Assembly (NCBI GenBank): GCA_963741945.1
Contig: CAVUKA010000001.1
Coordinates: forward strand, 832,001 to 896,000
Origin: an uncultured Gemmatimonadales bacterium
GTDB lineage: Bacteria; Gemmatimonadota; Gemmatimonadetes; Longimicrobiales; RSA9
Reading direction: 5' to 3'
DNA length: 64,000 nucleotides
Shown: in pieces, positions 14,248 through 27,295 of the stretch
How the letters are laid out: each line of letters starts with the position of its first letter
How positions within the stretch are numbered: position 1 is the first letter of the stretch
Made by a program: the position numbers and the translations under genes
The notes under the pieces: model-generated
What the model saw: only the letters and a program-made list of their open reading frames with translations
Told to the model about the DNA's origin: nothing
Database searches by the model: none

Positions 14248-14358
14248 GGAGCCTCCTGTGACTGTTCGGATGCCTTCACTTCATGACGTTTCAACGGCTT
14301 GCGACCACGAGCGCCGATCGCCTCAAGCGCTTGGCCGCCGCCAGAAGCGGATTTGAGA

Positions 14359-14458
14359 CGACGTTTCCAGGTTGGCGACCCGCCACGCCGGGACCTTCAG
14401 CGCGAGACCACCTTCGAACCTGCACTTCCGTCACCAGCTCCAACACGGCCGCGGCGGG
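14359..14458. repeat. Degenerate attC-like repeat (left arm and central stem only)
   Basis: cgACGTTTCCAGGTTGGCGACCCGCCACGCC...CGCGGCGGG matches intact copies; TAAC mutated, right arm missing. A shorter remnant lies at 14284-14306. Confidence 0.75.
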
Positions 14459-14762
14459 CCTTTCGACCGCCCCGACTATCACCTTGACTCTGTGGTCGGC
14501 AATGGCAGCTGCCCCATCATCGACGCGAGTGTCTCGGCAACGGCCGCGGGGCTCCTCCTTGCCAGCGGTAGTTCAGCAACCCTGCCCCATTCTGGAGGGT
14601 TCCGAACGGCCAGAACCCACTCTGCATCCCGGGTTCAGCCCCTTTGATACAATGGAGGGGGAAGCCCCTGTTTGTTCTCCGACGTGCGTCGCCTTGTTTC
14701 CCTGATCACTGCCAGCGCTCCCCTCACCCTCTCCGCCAACGAGGGGGCCGCATGCATGGACC

Positions 14763-16082: not shown

Positions 16083-16185
16083 GCTCTCCCCTCTCTCTTC
16101 TCAGCGCCGATCGAATCCACCGCCTCTCCTCCTCGCCTGGCCCACCACCGCATCAAAGCGACCGCAGGCGCAGGATTATTTCGGC

Positions 16186-16229
16186 TAACATTCCCAGGTT
16201 GGCGACCCGCCGCGCCCAAGCATCCAGCG
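16186..16229. repeat. Truncated attC-like repeat (left arm) abutting IS110 remnant
   Basis: TAACATTCCCAGGTTGGCGACCCGCCGCGCC, followed within a few bases by the transposase ATG. Confidence 0.85.
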
Positions 16230-16236
16230 GCGCACC

Positions 16237-17025
16237 ATGCTGCACACGGGGATCGATCTGCATAAGCGCACCTGCGTTCTGGCCACGGTGGACGCCGACG
16301 GCGAAGTCGTGGCCGAAGCGGAGCTCCGAACCCGTCGGGCGGCCATCGCCCGCTACTTCGCGCAGCTCCCGCCGCACCGAGCCACAGTCGAAGCCACCAG
16401 CAGCTGGTACTGGATCCGGGACCTGCTGGAGGCCCACATGATCTCCGCTGAGCTCCGACCGCTCCGCGACGTGATGCGGACCCGGCTCCGCCTGATCCAG
16501 AAAGAGGTCGGGACTCGAAACAGCATTCACCGGCTCCCCGAGAAGCACAACGTTCGCAGTGTCGCGGACCTGCCGCCCATGGCCCAGCTCCAGGCCGCCT
16601 GCCACCGCGAGCAGAGGGAGCTTCTCCGGGAGCACGTCCGCCGACTCGAGAAGAGCCTCCACCCGCACCTGGTGCCTGACCCCGATGTCCAGCGGCTGCT
16701 TGCGATCCCCGGGATCGGCAAGGTCGGCGCCTGGAGGCAAGGACCGGCACCGGCACTCCAGGGACGGCAACAAATACCTGAAGATCGTCTTCTCGAACGC
16801 CGCGGTCCGCGCGATCCAGTACAACCCCGAGATCCGGAGCTGGTACGAACGGAAGGCGCGGAAAAAGAACCGGGCTGTGGCCGGGCTCTCGTCGCGAAGG
16901 AACTCGCTCGTATCGTCTACCATGTCCTCTCGAAGCGGGAGGACTTCAACCATCGCTTCAAAGGCATCCCGCTCCAGCGGCGGAAAAAGCAGGAGTGGCC
17001 ACGTCGGTCAAGCCCGGGCAGCTAA
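16237..17025 (+). pseudogene. IS110-family transposase, internally deleted and frameshifted
   Basis: GIDLHK, VEATSSWYW, LLAIPGIG; C-terminal part (GNKYLK...AAVRA...WYERK) in another frame, then VAKELARIVYHVL; much shorter than full-length IS110 transposases. Confidence 0.88.
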
Positions 17026-17311
17026 CTGGATCGGCTTTCGCCGAGTACCGCCCCGTTTGATTGGGAAGACCGACGTCGAGCCGCCGGACGTATCTGGGAC
17101 CGCTCCGCAGAGCGACCGCTGAAATGAGCAGCGGTGAGCCCGAAATGGTGTTTGGACGCCACTCCACGTCCGATTCGATACCCACTCCGGCCCGGCCAGA
17201 CCTGCCGTCGCTCGCGGAATCGAGAAGCGTCGCACGATCGAAAAGCGAATCAGAATCTCTGATTCCGCAGAGGATCATCGTGCTCCTTGACGAAGGACTT
17301 GTTAATGGTGT
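17026..17311 (+). ncRNA. IS110/IS1111-type 3' non-coding end, candidate bridge/seek RNA
   Basis: ~285-bp non-coding tract after the transposase, with hairpins (ACCGCT...AGCGGT), an internal AATGGTGT identical to the element end, and a terminal TTGAC. Confidence 0.5.
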
Positions 17312-17363
17312 CAGGCGGTGTCCGCAAATCCAGGCCTTTCGCTCCGCAAACCGCCTCTCGCTC

Positions 17364-17393
17364 TTGAACTGCCGATCCCCTCCTGGGTATCAT
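17364..17393 (+). promoter_or_regulatory. Putative sigma70 promoter of inverted TA cassette
   Basis: TTGAAC-18bp-TATCAT followed by AGGAGG and ATG 17412. Confidence 0.5.
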
Positions 17394-17411
17394 CCGGCCA
17401 AGGAGGATCTC

Positions 17412-17630
17412 ATGACCGAACTACTCAAGAAGGCTTTCGACGAAGCGTCCAAACTCCCCAGCGAGCAGCAGGACGCCATCGCCGCTCTACTCCTGGAGGA
17501 GCTCGAGTCCGATCGAAACTGGGATCGGACCTTTGAAAACTCCCAGGACGACTTGGCGAAGCTCGCGAACGAAGCCCTCGCCGAAGACGCACGAGGTGAG
17601 ACGGAAAACCTCGACCCGTCCAAGCTTTGA
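17412..17630 (+). CDS. Putative type II antitoxin (72 aa)
   Basis: Acidic MTELLKKAFDEASKLPSEQQDAIA...WDRTF...LAKLANEAL; overlaps toxin start. Confidence 0.8.
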   Translation: MTELLKKAFDEASKLPSEQQDAIAALLLEELESDRNWDRTFENSQDDLAKLANEALAEDARGETENLDPSKL

Positions 17631-17896
17631 CCTCCCGCACCACTTCATCTTTTCGGAAGGCCTATTCCTCACTTCCTACCGACGTCCAGGAGCGGGCTCG
17701 CGAGGCCTTCGACCTCTTCTCCGCCAATCCGGCTCATCCGAGCCTGCAGTTCAAGCAGGTTCACGCGACCGAGCCGATCTTCTCAGCCCGCATATCGCTC
17801 CACTACAGAGCCTTGGCCCGCCGCGCCGACGATGACTGGATCTGGTTCTGGATCGGCTCACACGCCGACTATGACCAACTCTTGAAGCGCCTGTAG
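17627..17896 (+). CDS. RelE/ParE-superfamily toxin
   Basis: F..AY..LP..VQ..A...F..NP.HPSL.FK...SARI...YRAL...WFWIGSHADYD pattern. Confidence 0.82.
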   Translation: MTSRTTSSFRKAYSSLPTDVQERAREAFDLFSANPAHPSLQFKQVHATEPIFSARISLHYRALARRADDDWIWFWIGSHADYDQLLKRL

Positions 17897-17915
17897 CTCT
17901 GAAGCGGATGCCGCA

Positions 17916-18062
17916 TAACGTTTCCAGGCTACCGACCCGGCCCACCATGAACTGCAGGGCCGCGGCGAGTTTCGAATCCACACGCGCCCACCGAACGGCG
18001 CAACATTGCGGGCCGGGTACTCCGCAGCGACCGAAGGGAGCGGAGGCGCTAGCCGTCTGTTA
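17916..18062. repeat. attC-like recombination site (147 bp)
   Basis: TAACGTTTCCAGGCTACCGACCCGGCCC...GGGCCGGG...GGCGCTAGCCGTCTGTTA. Confidence 0.88.
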
Positions 18063-18241
18063 TCCGCTGCGCCTCCATCAGCCGCCTCTCCGTCCGCGTG
18101 TTCGCGTGCCCGGCGAAGCAGTTCCGAGTGTCGAAAGAACTGCCGGACCCGAGGTGGCTCGCCTCGGCGGGGCCCGCCTGCTCGAGAACGTGATCAAAAT
18201 CAAATTGATTTCGCTGTCTCCGTCTTGGAGGCGCTTGCGGC
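18063..18241. other. ORF-less cassette (179 bp) with internal hairpins
   Basis: Bounded by two repeats, has its own terminal inverted repeat, no convincing start codon/ORF. Confidence 0.7.
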
Positions 18242-18386
18242 TAACGTCTCCAGGTTGGCGACCCGCCGCGCCGATACCTCTAGCACGCGATCACCTTCGA
18301 AACAGCGGCAGCCTCACCAGCTTCAACACGGTCGCGGCGGGTTCTCCGGAGCGGCCGCAGGCCGCGCAGGCGCCAACCGTTTGTTA
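18242..18386. repeat. attC-like recombination site (145 bp)
   Basis: TAACGTCTCCAGGTTGGCGACCCGCCGCG...CGCGGCGGGTTCTCCGGAGCGGCCGCAGGCCGCGCAGGCGCCAACCGTTTGTTA. Confidence 0.9.
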
Positions 18387-18418
18387 ACCGCCGTGTTCTG
18401 CCCACAGCCTGGCGGACG

Positions 18419-18715
18419 TCACCTCCGGGCCTGCCAACGCTTCGGATCGCGGCGGGAATGGAAAACGGAGAGTACCACGATCTCTTCCGCGCTCACTCTG
18501 AAGAGAATGGCATATGGGAATCGCCGAACAACGGCCCTCCGGACATCCCGATACAGAATGGGAAATCGGAGAGGATTCCGCTGGATCGCTGAGAAAGCCG
18601 CATCGATGACGCGGACGAATTCCGCTCCCAAGCCCAAGGAACGCTCCGAATACCACGCTGCGGCTTCCTCGAGTTCGGCGTCGGCCGCAGGGCGAACAAC
18701 GAAGCGGCGGCTCAC
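18419..18715 (-). CDS. RelE/ParE family toxin
   Basis: PAADAELEEAAAWY....GLGAEF, RRAVVRRFPYAILF, VFHSRRDP. Confidence 0.9.
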   Translation of the reverse strand: MSRRFVVRPAADAELEEAAAWYSERSLGLGAEFVRVIDAAFSAIQRNPLRFPILYRDVRRAVVRRFPYAILFRVSAEEIVVLSVFHSRRDPKRWQARR

Positions 18716-18936
18716 CCGTACTTCTTGTACAACCGCTCCCGGACTTCCTCCCAGGGAATAGCAGAATCCGGGTCCGCTTCATGTTCTGCCAGCCTACGGT
18801 CCAGTTCCGCCTTCTGGGCCTCAGTTAATGGATAGGCGTCCGCGTCCGTAGCGATGCTGTCCCACAGGTCCTCCACCAACTGAATCCGCTCAGCGACCGA
18901 CAGCTTGAGCAGTTCCTCGATTGGTACACTCGACAT
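18712..18936 (-). CDS. Putative addiction module antitoxin (TIGR02574-like)
   Basis: LSVAERIQLVEDLWDSI...LTEAQKAELDRRL...IPWEEV; overlaps toxin start. Confidence 0.9.
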   Translation of the reverse strand: MSSVPIEELLKLSVAERIQLVEDLWDSIATDADAYPLTEAQKAELDRRLAEHEADPDSAIPWEEVRERLYKKYG

Positions 18937-19005
18937 CCGCAAGCTCCTTCCCTGAAGTCCCTTGCTCCTAATCTGCTACAGAAACGCCGAGTGGAACATG
19001 GGGGT

Positions 19006-19150
19006 TAACGTTTCCAGGTTGGCGACCCGCCGCGCCACAGCCTCCAGCGCTCGAACGCCTTCGAAACAACAACAATCTCACCAGCTTCATCACGGCTGCG
19101 GCGGGTTCTCCGGAGCTCGCGCAGCGAGCGGAGGCGCCAACCGTTTGTTA
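19006..19150. repeat. attC-like recombination site (145 bp)
   Basis: TAACGTTTCCAGGTTGGCGACCCGCCGCG...GCGGCGGG...GGCGCCAACCGTTTGTTA. Confidence 0.9.
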
Positions 19151-19700
19151 TCCGAAGCCCCACGGCGATGACCCCTCTTCAAGGCGCCCCGACTAGGCGC
19201 ATGAAAGGACGGAAAGCCGATTGCACCAGACGCCAGTAATACCCAAGGTCATCGGGCGATATCGACCAAGCGATCGTAACGAGTACTCCGATGGCGGTAT
19301 GGACCCAGGTAAACTTGCCTTGGCGCCTGGCTGTTTCTGCAAGGTAGTCTAACCTCCCACTGATGAACTTCTGTTGCTCCTCGCCTAACGAGTAACTTTC
19401 AAACAGTTTGGCCTCAAGTTCTTCAATTGAGTTGCGGATTTCGTCAGCTTCCTCAGCAGAAATCGGAGTGTCCTCAATCTCCTCTCTCGGCGAGAGCGTG
19501 AAGGATTCTTGGTATCTGGCCAGCTCCGTCCAGAGATCGCGGCTTTCCAATTCAAGCTTGAGGCGGTCGGCCCAATTCCAGCACAACTGCTTCTGCCCCT
19601 CCCAAGTTCCATTGTACACTTCTTCGATCCGCTTCTTCTTGTGGGTCCTCTAAACTATGTCGCGGTTTCTCTCTAAACTTTGTCGCGGCAAGGGCGTGAG

Positions 19701-20480
19701 CTAAGCGGCTTCAGAGTCAGGGGCCTCCTCCTGCTTATGGTGGCGGGTGCGGTAGGAGCGGCCGCGGAGCACGAAGTGGGTACCGCGCTCCAGGAGCCGA
19801 TCCAGAATCGCTTCCGCGAGATCGGCATCATGCAGCACCTGACCGAGGGCGGCCAGGGGTTTGTTGGTGGTCACGATCATGGGCCGGTGCTTCAGGTAGC
19901 GATCGTTGACCACCCGGTAGAGTACGTTGGCGGCATCGGCAGCGTAGCTCTGATAACCGAGTTCGTCGATCACCAGCACGTGCGGATGGACGTAGGGCTC
20001 GAGGGCTTCTTCCAGCCGTCCCTCCGCGGCTGCCTTCGAGAGGGCGCCGATCAGCTCGTCTGCGGTGGTGAAGCGGGCGTCGAAGCCGTTCTGGATGGCC
20101 CGATAGGCGATGGCCACGCCCATATGCGTCTTTCCCCGACCGGGCGGCCCCGTGAAGATCGCGGACCGCCCCTCGCTCACGAGCTCCGGCCCCAGCAGCG
20201 TGCCGAGCATCTGAAGGCGGACGCTGGTCTGGAAGGTGAAGTCGAATTCCTCGATGGTGCGGAGGAAGGGAAACTTCGCTTTGCGGACGTATCGGGTGAT
20301 CCGAGTCTGCGCCCGGTGGGCGATCTCCTCGGCGCAGAGTAGCTCGAGAAACGTGCGGTAGCTCATGCCCTCGTCCTCGGCCCGGATCACCAGGTCCGGA
20401 TAGAGGCGTCGGACCGTGGGCAGGTGAAGACGGTGGAGCATCGCATCCAGATCGTCCAGCGGCACGGGAGTGCTGATCAT
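19701..20480 (-). CDS. istB: IS21 helper ATPase IstB
   Basis: AKFPFLRTIEEFDF, Walker A GPPGRGKTH, LVIDELGY, EAILDRLL. Confidence 0.95.
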   Translation of the reverse strand: MISTPVPLDDLDAMLHRLHLPTVRRLYPDLVIRAEDEGMSYRTFLELLCAEEIAHRAQTRITRYVRKAKFPFLRTIEEFDFTFQTSVRLQMLGTLLGPELVSEGRSAIFTGPPGRGKTHMGVAIAYRAIQNGFDARFTTADELIGALSKAAAEGRLEEALEPYVHPHVLVIDELGYQSYAADAANVLYRVVNDRYLKHRPMIVTTNKPLAALGQVLHDADLAEAILDRLLERGTHFVLRGRSYRTRHHKQEEAPDSEAA

Positions 20481-21883
20481 GAGGCCGCCTCCTTCGCCAC
20501 GAGTCCCATCACGTACTCCGCCCCGATCAGGCGCTGAAAGAGCGCTCGCTGGAGCAGCCGGAGGAAACGCTCCTGGCCCACCTCCTCCAGCAGGGCGAAG
20601 AGCCGCTCGACGTCTCCTTTCCAGGTGTAAGGACGAGAGTGGATGAGTTCGGTCAGGTAGCCCTCACCGATGGGCCCCAGCTCCAGGATCCGCTCCCGCA
20701 TGAAGTAGAGGCGCTTCCGGGCGCCGGCCACGGCCGCCAGCTGCTCCGCCCTCTGGCCGGGCAGGTAGCTGGTAGTCCCCACTTTGGGAAAGCGTGGGTG
20801 GGTGGCCTCGAAGCGGGCACCGGTCGTGACGATCCGGACCCGGTCCGGGTACAGGTGCAGCGTGGCCGGAATCCCGCACGCCCCCGCCGGCATAGCGTAG
20901 CGGACTCCCTGGAAATCCACGAGGGCCGTGGGACCCACATGCACGGCGTAGCGCAGCCCGTATTCTGTGGGCGCAATGGCCAGCGGCTTCATGCGGGCCT
21001 GTTCGGTCACGAGCCGGAGCTTTGGGATCTCCTTCGTGGCGCGGGACGGCCGCTCCTCATTCACCCCCAGCAGCCACTCAAGGAGCTGACGGGGGAGGTC
21101 GTGATCGAGATCGGCGAAGCGGCGGGCTCGGAAGAAGCTCCGCTTCACCCAGCCCACAAGATTCTCCACCGAACCCTTCTGCTCGGGACTCCGCACCGCG
21201 CACAGCTCGATGGTGAAGCCGTAGTCGATGGCCACCTGCGCCAGGGTCGAGTTCCAGATCGGCCGGTCGCCGTCCCGGCCCACCACCACGGTCTTCGGAT
21301 TGTCGAAAACTACCCGGAGCGGCACGCCCCCCGAGTGCTCGAAGGCCGCGAGCAGCGCGCGCACCAGCGATTCGATCCGCTCGTCCGGCACGATCACCAC
21401 CCACACCCACCGCGAGTACTTTAGCCGGAAGGCCGCGAAGTGGACCCGCTTCTTCCGCCCGTCCAGCAGCCGGACGTCGGCCTGCCCGAAGTCGAACTGG
21501 GCGAACTCCCCCGCTACCCCCTCGAACCGCACCATCAGCTCCGCCGGCAGCTTCCCCTTCTCCAGCCGAAACACCCGATAGAAGGTGCTCTCGGCGAGCT
21601 GAACTCCTTCGTCACGAAGCAAGCGAAGGTACTCCAGCGGTGGAGCTTCCGGATCCTCCGCGATCAGATCCACCAGCCGCTGCTTCACCGCTGACCTCAC
21701 TGGCGGTCGGCCCACACCACGGCGCCGCCGCTCCGCCACGTCATCCCCGTCCTCTACCAGCGGCTCTTTGGCGATCCGCTGGATCGTCCGCACGGTGACG
21801 CCGAACTGCTCCGCAATCTGCTTCTTCTCTTCCCCCGCCTTCAGCAGAGCATGGACTGCATGTCGATCAATCATCCTGAGCAT
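20477..21883 (-). CDS. istA: IS21 transposase IstA
   Basis: N-terminal HTH, RFE...GEFAQFDFG, GGVP....FDNPKT, KGSVENLVG. Confidence 0.95.
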   Translation of the reverse strand: MLRMIDRHAVHALLKAGEEKKQIAEQFGVTVRTIQRIAKEPLVEDGDDVAERRRRGVGRPPVRSAVKQRLVDLIAEDPEAPPLEYLRLLRDEGVQLAESTFYRVFRLEKGKLPAELMVRFEGVAGEFAQFDFGQADVRLLDGRKKRVHFAAFRLKYSRWVWVVIVPDERIESLVRALLAAFEHSGGVPLRVVFDNPKTVVVGRDGDRPIWNSTLAQVAIDYGFTIELCAVRSPEQKGSVENLVGWVKRSFFRARRFADLDHDLPRQLLEWLLGVNEERPSRATKEIPKLRLVTEQARMKPLAIAPTEYGLRYAVHVGPTALVDFQGVRYAMPAGACGIPATLHLYPDRVRIVTTGARFEATHPRFPKVGTTSYLPGQRAEQLAAVAGARKRLYFMRERILELGPIGEGYLTELIHSRPYTWKGDVERLFALLEEVGQERFLRLLQRALFQRLIGAEYVMGLVAKEAAS

Positions 21884-22254
21884 CCTCCCCGCCCTCCGAT
21901 TCTCAGAGCCCTGAGCCCTCGGAACGGCGGCATTCTACGCTGTGGATGCCCTCAACTGCGACATAGTTTGGAGAGAATCAGCGACAGAATTTCGGGAACT
22001 CACACTTCTCGCCGGGGCAGAATCGAGCCCAATCTTGGCCCCGGAGGTAGTCAAACTGGAAGTAGAAGTCCGGGTCCGTTTTCAGCACCAAGCGGGACAC
22101 CCTCTGTTCTGAACCGTGGAGACTGGCGACCTCCATCCACTCGAGTCGGGCCGGGTCGAGCCCCGCCCCTTCGACTACCTCGAAAATCTCGTTCTTTCGA
22201 CTAGTTAGAAGAACTTGATTCATCGCACTCCAACGCGTGTGCAGGGGTTTCGGA

Positions 22255-22400
22255 TAACGTTTCCAGGTTGGCGACCCGCCGCGCCACAATCTCAAGCGCG
22301 CCACCGCCTCCCAAACTCCGACCTCGTCACTAGCTCCAGTGCGGCCGGCGGCGGGTTCTCCGGAGCGGCCGAAGGCCGCGTAGGCGCCAACCGTTTGTTA
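22255..22400. repeat. attC-like recombination site (146 bp)
   Basis: TAACGTTTCCAGGTTGGCGACCCGCCGCG...GCGGCCGAAGGCCGCGTAGGCGCCAACCGTTTGTTA. Confidence 0.9.
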
Positions 22401-22426
22401 TCTGACGTGCGCGCCCTCGAGGGTGA

Positions 22427-22678
22427 CTATGGCGTGGGCACCGAGGAGACATCTTTGTAGAGCGCGTCTGGAGCGAGATCGATATCACCTGGCCAAGTGA
22501 CGGTACCACTCTCCGGATCGACGCTCACCGAATTGAAGACGCTCTGATCCCGCCAAGCCGCGAACACGCCCTTGCCGACGAGTCCCGAAAGGTCCACCTC
22601 CCCTTCAGTGCCATCGGAGAACCGGATCCAAAGCCGGTAGTTCGGCCGCGTCTTCGCCTGCTCGATTCGATACAGCAT
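22427..22678 (-). CDS. DUF2442 family protein (putative TA component)
   Basis: YRLWIRFSDGTEGEVDL...GVF......F..V.VD...TVTWPGDIDLAPDALY. Confidence 0.85.
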   Translation of the reverse strand: MLYRIEQAKTRPNYRLWIRFSDGTEGEVDLSGLVGKGVFAAWRDQSVFNSVSVDPESGTVTWPGDIDLAPDALYKDVSSVPTP

Positions 22679-22686
22679 TTTCGCCC

Positions 22687-22947
22687 TCAGTTCAGAGGAT
22701 CGATCTTCCCGGGCGCCTCGTGCGCCTGCGCTCGCCTCCACGCCTCCGCCAACTCCCTCTGGTGCAAACTGGCCCATTCCATCACCAGACCCAAGGCTCT
22801 CGGCGGCAAACTCCCTTCCAACACCGACAGATCCTCAATCCTCACCAGAGCTTCCGCTCCGCCGTACCGCGCATGGAAATGCGGCGGCGCGTGGTCGCGG
22901 AAGTACATGTAGATCGAGATGCCGAAGAACTCCGAAACCTTTGGCAA
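22687..22947 (-). CDS. DUF4160 family protein (putative TA component)
   Basis: MPKVSEFFGISIYMYFRDHAPPHFHARY...LVMEWASLHQREL...W. Confidence 0.88.
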   Translation of the reverse strand: MPKVSEFFGISIYMYFRDHAPPHFHARYGGAEALVRIEDLSVLEGSLPPRALGLVMEWASLHQRELAEAWRRAQAHEAPGKIDPLN

Positions 22948-23015
22948 TACACCTCCGCCTCTAACGAGATCTCCGGCATCTTCGAAACTACCGCGAAGCC
23001 GAAGCGCATGTCAGA

Positions 23016-23164
23016 TAACGTTTCCAGGTGAGCGACCCCGCTACCACGACCTCACCTGGCGCCGCCTCCTTCGAAACTTCCCGACATCCTTTGAGCAGCG
23101 CCAGCACCTGTCCGCGGGGTACTCCGAAGCGACCGAAGGGAGCGAAGGCGCTCACCGTTTGTTA
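23016..23164. repeat. attC-like recombination site (149 bp)
   Basis: TAACGTTTCCAGGTGAGCGACCCCGC...GCGGGG...GGCGCTCACCGTTTGTTA (compensatory changes in the outer stem). Confidence 0.9.
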
Positions 23165-23574
23165 TCTGAAGCCCCGTTCCCACCCGTCGGATCAGCTCGG
23201 ACCTGCGGGGGCTCACTGGAAAGTGGCTGGTTCACCAGATCCCAAGCCACGTCAATAAACTCCACTTCGAACCAGCGGTTGAACGTCTTCCAGTCCCGTT
23301 TCTTCGGCCATAGCGCCGGATCTGTATACCAGCTGTCGAGAGCGATCTCGAACATCAGATCGAAGTTGTCCCGGATCCAGGCTTCCGAATCCGGCGTCAT
23401 GTCGAACTGCGGGATCAGGAACGCCTCCACGGCCTTCTCCGCGACTTCCTCACTCACCGGCGGTCCCGGTCCCGGGTCCGCCTCCCGCACCCAGTCGACG
23501 AATGGCTGCTTCGGCCGCAGCACGACGAGGCCACGATTCAGGAACCAGATCTCCCCACCGTCAGTTTCAGCCAT
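23152..23574 (-). CDS. Conserved hypothetical cassette protein; stop codon inside the repeat
   Basis: LNR..VVLRPKQPFVDWV...FEIALDSWYTDPALWP..R...TF..WF.VEF. Confidence 0.8.
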   Translation of the reverse strand: MAETDGGEIWFLNRGLVVLRPKQPFVDWVREADPGPGPPVSEEVAEKAVEAFLIPQFDMTPDSEAWIRDNFDLMFEIALDSWYTDPALWPKKRDWKTFNRWFEVEFIDVAWDLVNQPLSSEPPQVRADPTGGNGASDNKR

Positions 23575-23597
23575 CCGCTTTCCTGAGGGGTTTCAGA

Positions 23598-23741
23598 TAA
23601 CGTTCAATGGTTGGCGACCGCCGCGCCGAACCTCCAGCGCTCTTCGATCTCTGAATCCAAGCAGCCCTTCCAGCATCAGCACACGGGCCGCGGCGGTACT
23701 CCGGAGCGAGCAACGCGAGCGCAGGCGCCAACCTAGTGTTA
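23598..23741. repeat. attC-like recombination site (144 bp)
   Basis: TAACGTTCAATGGTTGGCGACCGCCGCG...CGCGGCGGT...GGCGCCAACCTAGTGTTA. Confidence 0.88.
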
Positions 23742-23780
23742 TACGCAGTGCCCGCGCTGGGCCCTGGCCCGACCGACTCC

Positions 23781-24392
23781 TCAGCGCTTCCGTTTGAGCG
23801 TGCCCCACGCCGATACGAGCATCAGGTCATGACCAGCCTGGGCGAGGCTGAACTCTTCGGGATCGAATCCGTCTCCGAGCCATTCGATCTTCTCCCGCAC
23901 CCACTCTTCGAGCTCACCGATTGGAGTCCCGAGTGCTGCTAGCATTTCGGTATAGGCGTGGGGTCCACCGCAATCCTCTGGAGGGCCCCGACGAGCCCCC
24001 GCGACGACCATGGGCAGCCAGTCGAGGTCCGGATTGCCCTCCGGCTCCTCGATTTCTACAACGTGCCGCCACTCATCTCCCCAGTCGTACACGTACTCCA
24101 GCCGATCACCAGGGCCGAGGCCCAACCGGTCGAGACGCGCCTTGGTCGAATCCAAGCCCTCGGCCTCGTCATCCGGTGCCTCGTAGTGTTCCTCACCGAC
24201 CTGGAAGCTGTAGAGATGGTAGTCGTACCAGTCGAACAACAACTGGATGATTCGATGCAATTCGTGCAGGGTCGTCCGTTTCGGGAGCAGTACACGCCGC
24301 CAGATCCGGGGCTCGATGTCCTCGAGATAGATCTGCACCTGAAAATGGTCGTGGTCTGTCTTCACACGATCCGCCCGACGTGGCTGAATCAA
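23781..24392 (-). CDS. Plasmid pRiA4b ORF-3 family protein (first cassette)
   Basis: PRIWRRV....TL.ELH..IQ..F.W.DYHLYSF, YVYDWGDEWRH, PPEDCGG; GGAGG before TTG start. Confidence 0.9.
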   Translation of the reverse strand: MIQPRRADRVKTDHDHFQVQIYLEDIEPRIWRRVLLPKRTTLHELHRIIQLLFDWYDYHLYSFQVGEEHYEAPDDEAEGLDSTKARLDRLGLGPGDRLEYVYDWGDEWRHVVEIEEPEGNPDLDWLPMVVAGARRGPPEDCGGPHAYTEMLAALGTPIGELEEWVREKIEWLGDGFDPEEFSLAQAGHDLMLVSAWGTLKRKR

Positions 24393-24428
24393 GCTCTTTC
24401 CTCCAGCAGAAGCATGTCAGGCCATTGC

Positions 24429-24448
24429 GTATAACTACTGCGTTATAC
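24429..24448. other. Putative attI-like primary recombination site
   Basis: GTATAAC-TACTGC-GTTATAC exactly where the first cassette's terminal inverted repeat ends. Confidence 0.7.
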
Positions 24449-24455
24449 TGCGTTC

Positions 24456-24471
24456 CCGAACTCGTGTTCGG
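24456..24471. promoter_or_regulatory. CGAAC-N4-GTTCG palindrome (LexA-box-like or recombinase accessory site)
   Basis: CCGAAC-TCGT-GTTCGG adjacent to the attI-like site. Confidence 0.4.
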
Positions 24472-24670
24472 TAGGATGTCGGCGGGCCGGATGTTTGCGC
24501 CGGTCGTTCGGGAAAGGTCCTTATCAGTTGTCGGAGCCACCCACCCCGGCCGCCTGACCCGAATCATCTCTATTTGGGGCCATTCTTGTTCAGAAGCAAT
24601 GACCTTGTACAGGGGCTCCGCACGGCCGTTTGCACGGGGCTGATTCGAGCGGCCGACGGCCGCTTCCCCC

Positions 24671-25750
24671 TCACGCTGCGTCCAGCGGGTTCACGATCCG
24701 GGTCAGGTCGCCGCGGCTGACGTGGGTATAGATCTGGGTGGTGCGGGGGCTCGTGTGGCCGAGGAGCTCCTGGATGTGGCGGAGGTTGACGCCGGCCTCC
24801 AGGAGGTGGGTGGCGAAGCTGTGGCGGAGGGTGTGCACGGTGGCGTGCTTGCGTACGCCGGACCGGGCCAGGGCGCGCTCGAAGATCTTCTGCACGGACC
24901 GCGTGGTCAGATGGCGGCCGGGCCGGCCCCCGGGGAAGATCCAGTCGTCGGCGTGGAGGCGGGCAACGACGGGCTCGAGGGCGGCGGCCGCGGCATCGGC
25001 CAGCAGCGTGTAGCGGTCCTTCCTCCCCTTCCCTGCGCGGACACGGACCAGCCCTCGTCCGGAATCCACGTCGCCGACCCTGAGGCGTACCACCTCGCTG
25101 ACGCGGAGGCCGGCGGAGTACGCCAGTATCAGGGCCAGACGGTGCGTCGGGTTGGCGGGGGCGTCGAGGATGCGGCGCACTTCGTCGCGGGAGAGGACGG
25201 CGGGGAGCTGGCGCTCCCGCTTCGGGCGGCGGATCGGGTCCAGCGCGAGCGGGCGGCCGACGAGCCGCGCCAGGAGCCGGATGGCGCTGATCGCCTGGTG
25301 CTGGTAGGAGGTCGACCGGTCGTCGGCCTCGAGCCGGAGCAGGTGAGCGCGGACGTGCTCCGTCGACAGCTCGGTCGCGGCCTTCGGGAAAGCTTCGAAG
25401 AACCGACGGACGTGGCCGACGTAGTTCGTCCGCGTACGGGGGCCGTAGCCCTGGAGCCGGAGCTCTTCCGAGAGGCGCTGGAGGAGCGCCGCCGCCGGAT
25501 CGGTGCCGTTCGCCCGGCGAAACGGGACGCGGACCAGGTGCATGAGACCGGGGTCGACGCGGAAGCTCGCGTCGGGCGCCCGGAGCAGCGCGTTCAGCGC
25601 CTCCTCGGTGCGCGGCAGCAGCCACGCCGATCGGCCGGGGTCCCAGTGCCGGCCTGGGATCGAGCGGACGTGCCCGACCAGCCCCGCGTCATAGGGGAAC
25701 CGGACTTCGATCCGCGTTTCCGCGTCCATGAGCCAAACAGAGGTCGCCAT
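24671..25750 (-). CDS. Tyrosine recombinase (SAM-like + catalytic domains) with extra N-terminal HARP-like domain; lacks IntI insertion
   Basis: YSAGLRVSE, GKGRKDR, HTLRHSFATHLLE, LLGH, TTQIYTHV; N-term IEVRFPYD...RSIPGRHWDPGRSAWLLP. Confidence 0.93.
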   Translation of the reverse strand: MATSVWLMDAETRIEVRFPYDAGLVGHVRSIPGRHWDPGRSAWLLPRTEEALNALLRAPDASFRVDPGLMHLVRVPFRRANGTDPAAALLQRLSEELRLQGYGPRTRTNYVGHVRRFFEAFPKAATELSTEHVRAHLLRLEADDRSTSYQHQAISAIRLLARLVGRPLALDPIRRPKRERQLPAVLSRDEVRRILDAPANPTHRLALILAYSAGLRVSEVVRLRVGDVDSGRGLVRVRAGKGRKDRYTLLADAAAAALEPVVARLHADDWIFPGGRPGRHLTTRSVQKIFERALARSGVRKHATVHTLRHSFATHLLEAGVNLRHIQELLGHTSPRTTQIYTHVSRGDLTRIVNPLDAA

Positions 25751-25864
25751 GACCGAGTCTGAACCGGCCACCGGGGCATGGGAATGGCCGGATCGGCCAT
25801 TCTGCTCTCGGCGGCCGCGGCTCGGCCCCTCCGTGCGCGGGCTCGGCTTGGTCGCCCGCCGTGC

Positions 25865-27295
25865 CTACATCCCGATCCAGATCCCGACCAGGATGGACAC
25901 GATCCCCAGGGCGACGAGCATGGCCCACATGCGGAGCGCGAAGGCGAGCCAGCGGTCGTAACGGACGCCGGCGGCGGCGATGACGGCCATGAGCGCGCCG
26001 TTGGTGGGGGTGATCATGTCGCACAGCCCGGCGCCGTACTGGTAGGCGAGGATGCCGACATCGCGGGAGAGGCCGAGGAGGTCGGCGAGGGGGGCGAGGA
26101 TCGGCATGGTGAGGACGGCCTGGCCGCTCACGCTGGGGACGGGGACGTGGATGGCGGTGTGGACGCCCACCATGCCGATGGCGGCGAGCGCGGGCGGGAG
26201 CCCCTGGATCGGCTGAAAGAGGCCGTGGACGATGGTGTCGATGACGTGGCCGTCGTCCAGCACGACGAAAATGGCGCGGGCGAAGCCGATGAGGATGGCG
26301 GCGAACGCCATGGCGCGGAATCCGTCGATGAACGCGTCCGCCGTCCCGCCCACGCCGAGCCGGCCCACCAGCCCGGCCACCACACCCAGGAGGAGGAAGA
26401 GCGCGGACATCTCGTTGAAGCCCCAGTCCAGCCGCATGACGCCGATCACGTACACGCCGAACGCCGCCACGGCCAGCGCCAGGATCAGGGCGTGGGCACC
26501 GGTCATCCGGATATCGGGCTGCGGAGCGACGCCGGGCGACGCCAGCTCCGGGGTGACGCCGGGCCGGGCCGGCTGCGGGGCCTGCAGCGGGGCGACGCCG
26601 GGCGGGGTCGGCTGCGGCGCGGTGCGGGTTCGCCGGGCGTAGCGGGCGGTGCCCCAGCTGTAGAGCGCGAGGGCCACCACTACGAAGGCGGTCCGGAACC
26701 CGGCGTGCTCGAGGAGCGGCACGCCGGCGATCTTCTGGGCGATCCCCACCTGGAACGGGTTGATGGGGCTGAACGCCGCGCCCACGGCGGCGGCGCCGAG
26801 GGAGATGGCCACGGCCACCACGGTGTCGAAGCCGAGGCGGTGGGTGAGGAGGAGGAGCACGGGCACCAGCGCGATGAACTCCTCCTGCATGTTCTCCAGC
26901 GCCCCGGCGGTGCCGAAGGCGAAGCACGCGATGGGGATGATGAGCAGCTCGTGGCGTCCCAGGACGCGGACCAGCCGGTCGAAGCCGCCGTGGAGCGCGC
27001 CCGTCCGGTCGATGACGGTGAACGCGCCGCCCACCAGGAAGACCAGGAAGATGACTTCGCCCGCGTCCTCCATCCCGCGCGGCAGGGCGACGATGGTCTC
27101 GAACGGCCCCACGGGGCTGGAGGCCACGCGGTGGTAGCTGCCGCTCACCACCACCTCGCGCCCCGTCGCCGGGTCGGGCTGCCGGTCGTACGCGCCGGCC
27201 GGCAGCACCCACGTGAGGACTGCGGCCAGCACGACGCCCGCGAAGAGCAGGACGAGGGGATTCGGGAATCGTTTCAGGGGGGTGTCTCCGGCCAC
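25865..27295 (-). CDS. YfcC/DcuC-like transporter
   Basis: LTWVLPAGAYDR, FSPINPFQVGIAQKIA, VPSVSGQAVLTMPILAPLAD, ITPTNG. Confidence 0.88.
   Translation of the reverse strand: MAGDTPLKRFPNPLVLLFAGVVLAAVLTWVLPAGAYDRQPDPATGREVVVSGSYHRVASSPVGPFETIVALPRGMEDAGEVIFLVFLVGGAFTVIDRTGALHGGFDRLVRVLGRHELLIIPIACFAFGTAGALENMQEEFIALVPVLLLLTHRLGFDTVVAVAISLGAAAVGAAFSPINPFQVGIAQKIAGVPLLEHAGFRTAFVVVALALYSWGTARYARRTRTAPQPTPPGVAPLQAPQPARPGVTPELASPGVAPQPDIRMTGAHALILALAVAAFGVYVIGVMRLDWGFNEMSALFLLLGVVAGLVGRLGVGGTADAFIDGFRAMAFAAILIGFARAIFVVLDDGHVIDTIVHGLFQPIQGLPPALAAIGMVGVHTAIHVPVPSVSGQAVLTMPILAPLADLLGLSRDVGILAYQYGAGLCDMITPTNGALMAVIAAAGVRYDRWLAFALRMWAMLVALGIVSILVGIWIGM

Follow-up and report, generated by a model that had tools for sequence, protein, structure and literature searches.

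An IntI-related tyrosine recombinase with a HARP-like N-terminal domain and without the IntI insertion beside an integron-like cassette array in a Gemmatimonadota genome

Can an integron-like cassette platform be run by a tyrosine recombinase that lacks the insertion typical of integron integrases? This question is raised by a stretch of 64,000 nucleotides (nt) from an uncultured Gemmatimonadales bacterium (contig CAVUKA010000001.1, positions 832,001 to 896,000; hereafter the window). In it, a recombinase gene at 24671-25771 on the reverse strand is followed on its 3' side by a 10-kb cassette array in which a repeat of about 150 nt occurs eight times. The insertion is regarded as essential to the integron integrase IntI, judging from the title of Messier and Roy 2001 and from parts of PMC8138268. 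A preliminary description of the gene had proposed that an additional N-terminal domain of the HARP type replaces this insertion in the recognition of branched sites. According to the analysis presented here, the gene probably encodes the resident recombinase of an integron-like cassette platform, namely a relative of IntI that never gained the insertion and carries one HARP-type domain.

The open frame is an intact tyrosine recombinase gene, and its translation contains all four strings quoted in the preliminary description (KDRYTLL, HTLRHSFATH, LHADDWIFPGGRPGRHLTTRSVQ and RFPYDAGLVGHVRSIPGRHWDPGRSAWLLP). Alternative starts are present at ATG 25750 (residue 8), the one used in the preliminary description, and ATG 25729 (residue 15); the database copy of the protein, P0002, comprises 352 amino acids. 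Pfam recognises the core-binding domain SAM_4 (PF13495) at residues 96-169 (E 6.6e-12) and PF00589 at residues 192-352 (E 1e-43). The tyrosine-recombinase residue set R-K-H-R-H-Y is complete. Across 44 aligned homologues, R223, K248, R316, H339 and Y348 never vary, and at least 90% of the proteins keep H313. A word-index protein search, for which 8000 candidates were scored, returned 7823 proteins at E ≤0.001; among the 120 matches listed, the proteins are mostly 350-430 amino acids long, and most of them cover more than 90% of the query. The best NCBIfam models all score the recombinase below their own cut-offs: the integron integrase model TIGR02249 with 208.4 bits (cut-off 265), the XerA model NF040815 with 199.6 (220), XerC with 180 (335) and XerD with 169 (330).

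The absence of the IntI insertion, as first described, is borne out by alignment, profile, motif spacing and structure model. The recombinase is short of about 41 residues that this insertion contributes to IntI. When aligned by phmmer to the Vibrio integrase VchIntI4 (2a3v), residues 100-264 of the recombinase correspond to chain residues 9-176, and residues 286-364 to 240-318, so that the gap between the two blocks contains 21 residues in the recombinase versus 63 in IntI4. XerA (4a8e) aligns with the recombinase in a single contiguous block. The TIGR02249 profile is matched over positions 1-179 and 235-314, leaving positions 180-234 unmatched. Among 101 related recombinases, the spacing between the GKG and HxLRH motifs is shorter in the window family (64-67; 65 in the window protein itself) than in Xer-type proteins (71-73) and insertion-bearing canonical IntI (106-109, n=12). 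In the full-length model, residues 256-290 form one helix (H259-269) and no further one. The insertion is said to read the bulged L-box base of attC, an observation credited to MacDonald et al. in 2006.

The relationship to IntI was investigated with IQ-TREE (LG+G4, ultrafast bootstrap/SH-aLRT support) on 62 rows, rooted on Gemmatimonadota Xer-type proteins; the rows were picked by similarity to the window protein, and the sampling is biased accordingly. The 14 IntI rows are monophyletic (100/100), and the window protein stands outside their clade. It belongs to a group of 17 rows with a single HARP module (89/87), together with a Firmicutes locus, an archaeal locus and an enzyme of genome G364 that has no N-terminal domain. 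This group, IntI and an insertion-less group of proteobacterial type form a clade of 39 rows (83/96), and the multi-HARP enzymes of Bacteroidota form a separate clade (97/98). A quick tree of 101 rows joins IntI directly to the single-HARP group (SH-aLRT 95). The two trees thus differ in the branching order of the three groups. The insertion maps as one gain, and the HARP label needs three changes. The HARP-like domain is found in 36 of 81 insertion-less rows versus none of the 12 insertion-bearing IntI rows. The number of HARP modules per enzyme varies from one to four by lineage, and Bacteroidota recombinases with one to three modules occur among the loci and tree rows. A paralogue on contig C8 of the window genome (L005) has no N-terminal domain in the frame read and groups with the Xer outgroup. 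Two loci deserve mention on their own account. Genome G364 encodes four paralogues of 289-328 amino acids with neither insertion nor N-terminal domain (L118, L119, L124 and L125), in addition to a canonical IntI. On a contig of an Undinarchaeales metagenome-assembled genome (an archaeon), two genes in tandem encode insertion-less recombinases with a single HARP module (L006, 8489-11038), and the contig ends right after the second.

The additional N-terminal domain claimed in the preliminary description is real and predicted to be well folded. It is kept in 44 of 44 aligned homologues, with W50 invariant and G40, W43 and P53 present in at least 90%, and is recognisable by the motif FPYD..., IPGRRWDP..., W.xP. 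AlphaFold modelled the domain alone on alignment A3, which holds 17 N-terminal domains from the window and 15 loci, one locus giving two modules. The model has a predicted local distance difference test (pLDDT) score of 89.5, a predicted template modelling (pTM) score of 0.74 and the order beta-beta-alpha-beta-beta-alpha-beta. The full-length model reaches a pLDDT of 89.7, with more than 90 in the N-terminal part; the linker to the core, residues 80-91, is of low confidence (pLDDT about 60).

The resemblance of this domain to HARP, at first seen by eye, proved to be homology, because the A3 profile finds HARP-bearing SNF2 helicases. With A3 as query, hmmsearch found 5434 matches at E ≤0.001 among 1.84 billion representatives, including the SNF2 helicases P0223, P0247 and P0256 at E 5e-24 to 4e-22; P0223 and P0256 contain PF07443 above its cut-off (45 and 55 bits). 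Ten long matches out of 150 listed were scanned with Pfam and comprise seven recombinases with three or four N-terminal modules and three SNF2 helicases. Pfam HARP matches at E ≤0.1 occur in 19 of the 44 homologues, the best at 8.8e-5. In a Foldseek search of the PDB, the HARP domain of SMARCAL1 (4o66) is the top match (E 0.022, probability 0.97, TM 0.53, 21% identity), followed by the N-terminal domain of XPB; zero PDB matches reach E ≤0.001. VIA-align, run over 48,161 chains, ranks the N-terminus of T4 UvsW first (Z 6.9 and 6.7, root-mean-square deviation 1.8, 57 residues aligned), and its further matches include XPB (Z 5.5) and 4o66 (Z 4.3). Its third rank is CASTOR2 (9kpb, Z 5.7), and unrelated CASTOR and eIF1 folds score Z 4.6-5.7. 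Judged by profile search and Pfam matches in its relatives, with modest fold matches pointing the same way, the N-terminal domain is a HARP relative. HARP relatives act at replication forks and bind forked DNA and junctions between single- and double-stranded DNA. Mason et al. reportedly recognised in 2014 that HARP, the UvsW N-terminal domain and the damage-recognition domain of XPB are one structure-specific DNA-binding fold.

The repeats of the array have the anatomy of attC-type sites. Read on the strand of the gene, a site consists of xxxTAAC, a 4-nt spacer, an 8-nt L'' box, a small hairpin and a second helix that closes a variable arm, and is completed by the L' box, a 7-nt spacer and GTTAxxx. 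Folding was analysed in alignment A4, which contains 36 of 55 kept sites from nine arrays; near-duplicates and all five sites of L118 were left out. TAAC/GTTA is present in 36 of 36 sites, and the scan had demanded AAC/GTT, not the extra T/A. The stems are paired to 89.7%, versus 73.3% in 500 shuffles, none of which is as well paired, and 28-44% after sliding. Compensatory changes occur at 15 of 24 pairs. Helix 3, which had not been used for picking sites, is 90.9% paired, with compensatory changes at six of nine pairs, and RNAalifold independently finds five helix 3 pairs as well as the L stem. Most of the 55 kept sites have L boxes that form an 8/8 duplex without a bulge, and the extra unpaired bases of window-type sites are on the R'-L' arm, not the R''-L'' arm. 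The extrahelical base or bases of classical attC are placed on the R''-L'' arm in a part of PMC2727003, where large classical sites such as the Vibrio cholerae repeats (VCR) are described as branched too. Three matches of the site scan (window:17998-18127, L004:12712-12861 and L004:2297-2460) were dropped as false. A strict R/L-box scanner, applied to 76 loci, was likewise dropped as too insensitive: it reported at least three sites in only 3 of 13 canonical-IntI controls and 4 of 30 HARP loci, and 0 sites on L115, where BLAST gives nine.

The point at which cassettes are inserted was located by comparison with G453, a genome of the same genus whose recombinase is 89% identical to that of the window. 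Between the two genomes, identity is 86.6% over the upstream gene, recombinase and 3' spacer and 77.3% over the far flank. Their arrays differ in length (10 kb in the window, about 27 kb in G453) and have only two cassettes in common (99.1% and 93.3%), at other positions, plus an IS21-type element; the better conserved of the two is the ParE-like cassette of the window. The junction alignment is perfect over 65 nt and stops right after the GTTA of TAAC-GCAGTA-GTTA. Because homology to G453 ends there, this simple motif is assigned as an attI-like site with crossover in its GTT box, where integrons have it too. Cassettes are inserted directly after GTTA (24435-24432), and the site is situated about 225 nt 3' of the recombinase stop codon, that is, 3' of the gene and not 5'. 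Genome G167 possesses the same AAC-GCAGTA-GTTA motif. Cassettes also move within the window genome: a 769-bp unit (18242-19010), composed of the antitoxin/ParE cassette and its site, has a 99.7% identical copy in a second array, and its ends fall in the TAACG of the flanking sites. A stretch of 10 nt is duplicated in tandem (GAACGCAGTA / TAACGCAGTA, 24436-24455, reverse strand) immediately upstream of this GTTA; G453 and G167 lack the duplication. Contigs from four DNA sequencing runs of one study were short, with joints whose sides measured 21-49 nt at 90% likeness, and were not used.

Another 13 Gemmatimonadota genomes show the same succession of gene and array in the same relative orientation. 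The flanks of 13 relatives were fetched, and three have no usable flank. Seven relatives have a co-oriented array of 3-21 repeats of 150-200 nt directly 3' of the gene (21 in G270, 14 in G356, 11 in G288, nine in G249, five in G302 and three in G380, and 13 sites on G364:C1). In G167, two repeats follow the gene before the contig ends. Covariance model (CM) matches are adjacent to the gene and on the same strand in G453, G411, G413, G443, G481 and G167. The arrays of these relatives have the same site anatomy, with different L-box and helix sequences. G249 and G288 also possess solitary sites or small site groups far from the main array, for example at G249:C1:2438851-2440827 and G288:C3:1517131-1518721.

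On a broader scale, the recombinase family (P0001 at E ≤1e-60) is present in 20 of 401 genomes of the phylum, with 3 of 7 in family f1, 14 of 70 in f2 and 2 of 30 in f7, and is absent at this threshold from the nine other families sampled. The order was surveyed in one set of 151 genomes, with covariance model R1 for the sites and P0001 for the recombinase: 20 genomes had both recombinase and sites, 11 the recombinase only, seven sites only and 113 neither; without G409 (sites only) and G441 (recombinase only), which are flagged as unpublished, the counts are 20, 10, 6 and 113. The recombinase gene is present in 17 of 17 genomes with at least three sites; in this sample of the order, gene and arrays go together. 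Among the array-linked Gemmatimonadota enzymes examined, 11 possess the N-terminal domain versus one that does not. A self-BLAST repeat scan of 80 loci detected few repeats and says little about taxa outside Gemmatimonadota, because many contigs end 0.1-2.4 kb 3' of the gene.

From these findings, which establish the anatomy, the homology, the linkage to arrays, the turnover of cassettes and the place of crossover, the following course of events may be proposed. It is likely, and for us the best-founded part of the proposal, that the window enzyme rather than another one catalyses cassette recombination. Its R-K-H-R-H-Y core would cut and exchange strands at the AAC/GTT triplet. One substrate would be the simple double-stranded attI-like site, TAAC-N6-GTTA. 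The other would be the attC-type sites of about 150 nt, which, folded as a single strand or cruciform, would bring TAAC and GTTA together; this use of a folded substrate is favoured with somewhat less assurance. Cassettes would thereby enter at attI and be excised or shuffled between sites. The HARP domain, finally, could allow the enzyme to bind, by virtue of their structure, the folded and branched site or the spacer left unpaired in it. That it substitutes in this way for the IntI insertion is conceivable and still doubtful, and the points in its favour are the genuine homology, the fact that domain and insertion never occur together, and the branched sites without a bulged L-box base.

Several observations weigh against the window gene as the recombinase of the platform. 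No array was detected 3' of the gene in G239 (nor on G364:C89). In the survey of the order, the gene occurs without detected sites in 11 genomes, most of them fragmented and with the gene at a contig end, and the seven sites-only genomes have one or two matches each; the odds ratio of the gene-site table, about 29, overstates the association because related genomes are not independent. A second array in the window genome (L004, G000:C1:346000-362000), with at least six sites of the 150-nt family, has no adjacent recombinase of the window family; a complete cassette (99.7% identical) and a portion of a second one are common to it and the window array. Canonical IntI, which could act in trans, is encoded in G356, G302, G364 and the window genome itself (G000), and in G453 in frameshifted form; there, at G453:C2:1322-2267, profile positions 1-170 and 169-315 are in two frames, and the gene is probably a pseudogene.

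These last points would suit an ordinary integron array, or a cluster of attC sites lacking an integrase (CALIN), that is served in trans by a canonical IntI; the HARP recombinase beside it would then have a different task, for instance the resolution or integration of another element. The window genome has two closely related canonical IntI above the TIGR02249 cut-off (G000:C1:1401601-1402308, L001, and G000:C6:4028-4888, L003), one of whose genes is near a contig end, and the R boxes of L108 (GCCTAAC...GTTAGGC) appear to resemble textbook attC cores. We nevertheless hold this explanation to be improbable. Neither canonical IntI is near the 150-nt site family, which in this genome occurs only in the window array and in the one at C1:352-358 kb. 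The L001 integrase adjoins a different type of site, of about 120 nt and with an extra bulged G in the L box, which is the extrahelical base of classical attC as PMC2727003 defines it. Fixed-orientation synteny of gene and array in 13 further genomes and the conserved insertion point 225 nt from the recombinase stop also speak against a service in trans. Moreover, 8 of 13 array-bearing genomes (G270, G249, G380, G288, G411, G443, G413 and G431) have no IntI above the TIGR02249 cut-off, and two of them, G249 and G443, are single contigs. The array beside the L001 integrase, for its part, also appears to be 3' of its gene. Even less probable is the idea that the repeats are double-stranded Xer-type sites, or mere structured intergenic repeats, for which folding is irrelevant. 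It would agree with the attI-like site being a simple inverted repeat whose arms are 6 bp apart, with the end-to-end alignment of the core to XerA and with the unexceptional folding energies. As a duplex, however, a site would hold TAAC and GTTA about 140 nt apart; compensatory changes keep the L stem and second helix across nine arrays, and cassettes end in the TAAC/GTTA box.

If the window enzyme is the array recombinase, the role of its HARP domain has to be weighed separately. One case against substitution as a strict requirement is the relative on G364:C1 (L118, 316 amino acids), which has neither insertion nor N-terminal domain and yet heads an array of 13 equally branched sites. Branching is not special to window-type sites either, as it is reported for VCR too. 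The evidence for the fold is modest: in the window protein itself, PF07443 matches residues 22-50 with E 0.056 and 13.4 bits versus a cut-off of 25, the best Foldseek match has E 0.022, and all VIA Z scores are below the guide value of 8. The folding energy of single sites, as DNA, is not better than that of shuffles (z -0.67 and -0.49), a measure that is uninformative at 70% G+C. The domain might instead tether the enzyme to forks or to junctions of single- and double-stranded DNA, or serve regulation or assembly, and the insertion might simply be unneeded where L boxes have no bulged bases. The mostly perfect 8/8 L-box duplexes, the low-confidence linker, the lineage-dependent number of one to four modules and the action of HARP relatives at forks, reportedly described by Mason et al. 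2014, would all fit such a role. On the other side stands the retention of the domain in all but one of the array-linked Gemmatimonadota enzymes examined. We consider this alternative rather unlikely, although the observations do not tell it apart from direct recognition of the site by the domain; a substitution for the insertion is itself doubtful.

The features of the locus are collected in Table 1. The cassettes also encode a PEMT-family protein (Pfam). The IS21-type element breaks up the array and has 84% identical copies in G453. A further inserted segment (16229-17311) adjoins the half site at 16187 and cuts short a cassette that G453 has in complete form; the second array has this segment at 91-99% identity. 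An open frame at 16237-17025 on the forward strand looks IS110-like by eye, and as Pfam gives no match at E ≤0.001, this identity is not claimed. On the 3' side of the recombinase gene, the G+C content is 0.60-0.66 versus about 0.70. Rfam at gathering thresholds and a scan for tRNA and tmRNA genes gave no matches in the window. A scan of 24300-26000 for sigma-70-type promoter and terminator consensus sequences found no match and no cassette promoter (Pc), with the proviso that promoters in this phylum may not follow that consensus.

Table 1. Recombinase gene, recombination sites, cassettes and insertion element of the locus (window positions)
Feature	Position	Strand	Basis
Tyrosine recombinase gene	24671-25771	-	Open frame of 366 codons from GTG 25771
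HARP-like N-terminal domain, residues 10-79	25535-25744	-	AF2 model, Foldseek, VIA, profile search
attI-like simple site GTATAAC-GCAGTA-GTTATAC	24429-24448	-	Comparative breakpoint
Cassette 1 gene, PRiA4_ORF3 family	23781-24392	-	Pfam E 4.4e-50
attC-type site 1	23595-23744	-	CM R1 match at G000:C1:855595-855744
attC-type site 2	23013-23167	-	Repeat and CM R1
Cassette with DUF4160 and DUF2442 gene pair	22427-22947	-	Pfam
attC-type site 3	22252-22403	-	Repeat and CM R1
IS21-type element, istA 20477-21883 and istB 19701-20480	19701-21883	-	Named by eye from translations
attC-type site 4	19003-19153	-	Repeat and CM R1
Toxin-antitoxin cassette, Unstab_antitox and ParE	18419-18942	-	Pfam
attC-type site 5	18239-18389	-	Repeat and CM R1; borders cassette duplicated in second array
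attC-type site 6	17913-18065	-	Repeat and CM R1
Cassette with ParE-like toxin gene 17627-17896 (+)	17309-17941	+	Pfam
Half site, recognisable R'-L' side only	16174-16340	-	Repeat copy
Last, degenerate site at distal end of array	14347-14507	-	Repeat copy

The locus is regarded here as a new integron variant, without the IntI insertion and with a HARP domain, on which no paper was found. The literature search likewise yielded no paper in which tyrosine recombinases or integrons are connected with a HARP domain, nor one on such arrays, and the classification tables of PMC8138268 might list the subfamily. A wider interpretation, which we put forward with reservation as a serious possibility, is that there is a second type of integron, widespread and run by HARP-fused, insertion-less recombinases, in Gemmatimonadota, Bacteroidota, Firmicutes, Spirochaetota and an archaeon, and that IntI is a derived branch that traded the N-terminal module for the insertion. 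If this is true, surveys based on IntI miss a second kind of integron, and there would be two independent protein solutions to folded single-stranded sites. Gene-capture systems would be under-counted as long as integrons are defined and searched by the IntI insertion. A platform without the insertion offers a natural experiment on the recognition of folded DNA sites and also bears on the origin of IntI from Xer-like ancestors, a subject addressed by Escudero et al. 2016 (PMC4792948). On a recombinase, HARP would have a new context, as this fork-binding module has so far been known from helicases.

Among known systems, IntI comes closest: TIGR02249 and VchIntIA/IntI4 (2a3v) are the best NCBIfam and PDB sequence matches of the window recombinase. 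As in IntI systems, SAM_4 and catalytic domains, an attI-like site, folded-type sites with AAC/GTT and toxin-antitoxin cassettes are found together. Unlike IntI, the window enzyme lacks the insertion of about 41 residues, scores under the cut-off, falls outside the IntI clade and has a HARP domain; its gene is co-oriented with the cassettes, attI is 3' of it, and the sites of about 150 nt have no bulged L-box base. With XerA, XerC and XerD, the enzyme has core length and architecture in common, as well as the contiguous alignment to 4a8e. It differs from them in scoring under all Xer cut-offs, in that the Xer-type paralogues of its own genome form the outgroup clade, and, compared with Xer resolvases, in the patchy distribution of its family (20 of 401 genomes of the phylum) and its tie to arrays.

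The N-terminal domain resembles HARP (PF07443) of SMARCAL1 and bacterial HARP-SNF2 proteins and the N-terminal domains of UvsW and XPB by profile homology and fold matches. In contrast to HARP-SNF2 helicases, it is fused to a recombinase and not to a helicase motor, and its DNA binding is putative. The array as a whole is reminiscent of sedentary chromosomal integrons and CALIN, with homogeneous sites, small open frames, toxin-antitoxin cassettes, insertion sequences and an integrase-less second array; it deviates from them in that its site family goes with an insertion-less recombinase and that the L box has no bulge in the scan. From the HARP recombinases of Bacteroidota, lastly, the window enzyme is set apart by its single module, by grouping with IntI and not with the Bacteroidota clade, and by the presence of canonical IntI in the same genome.

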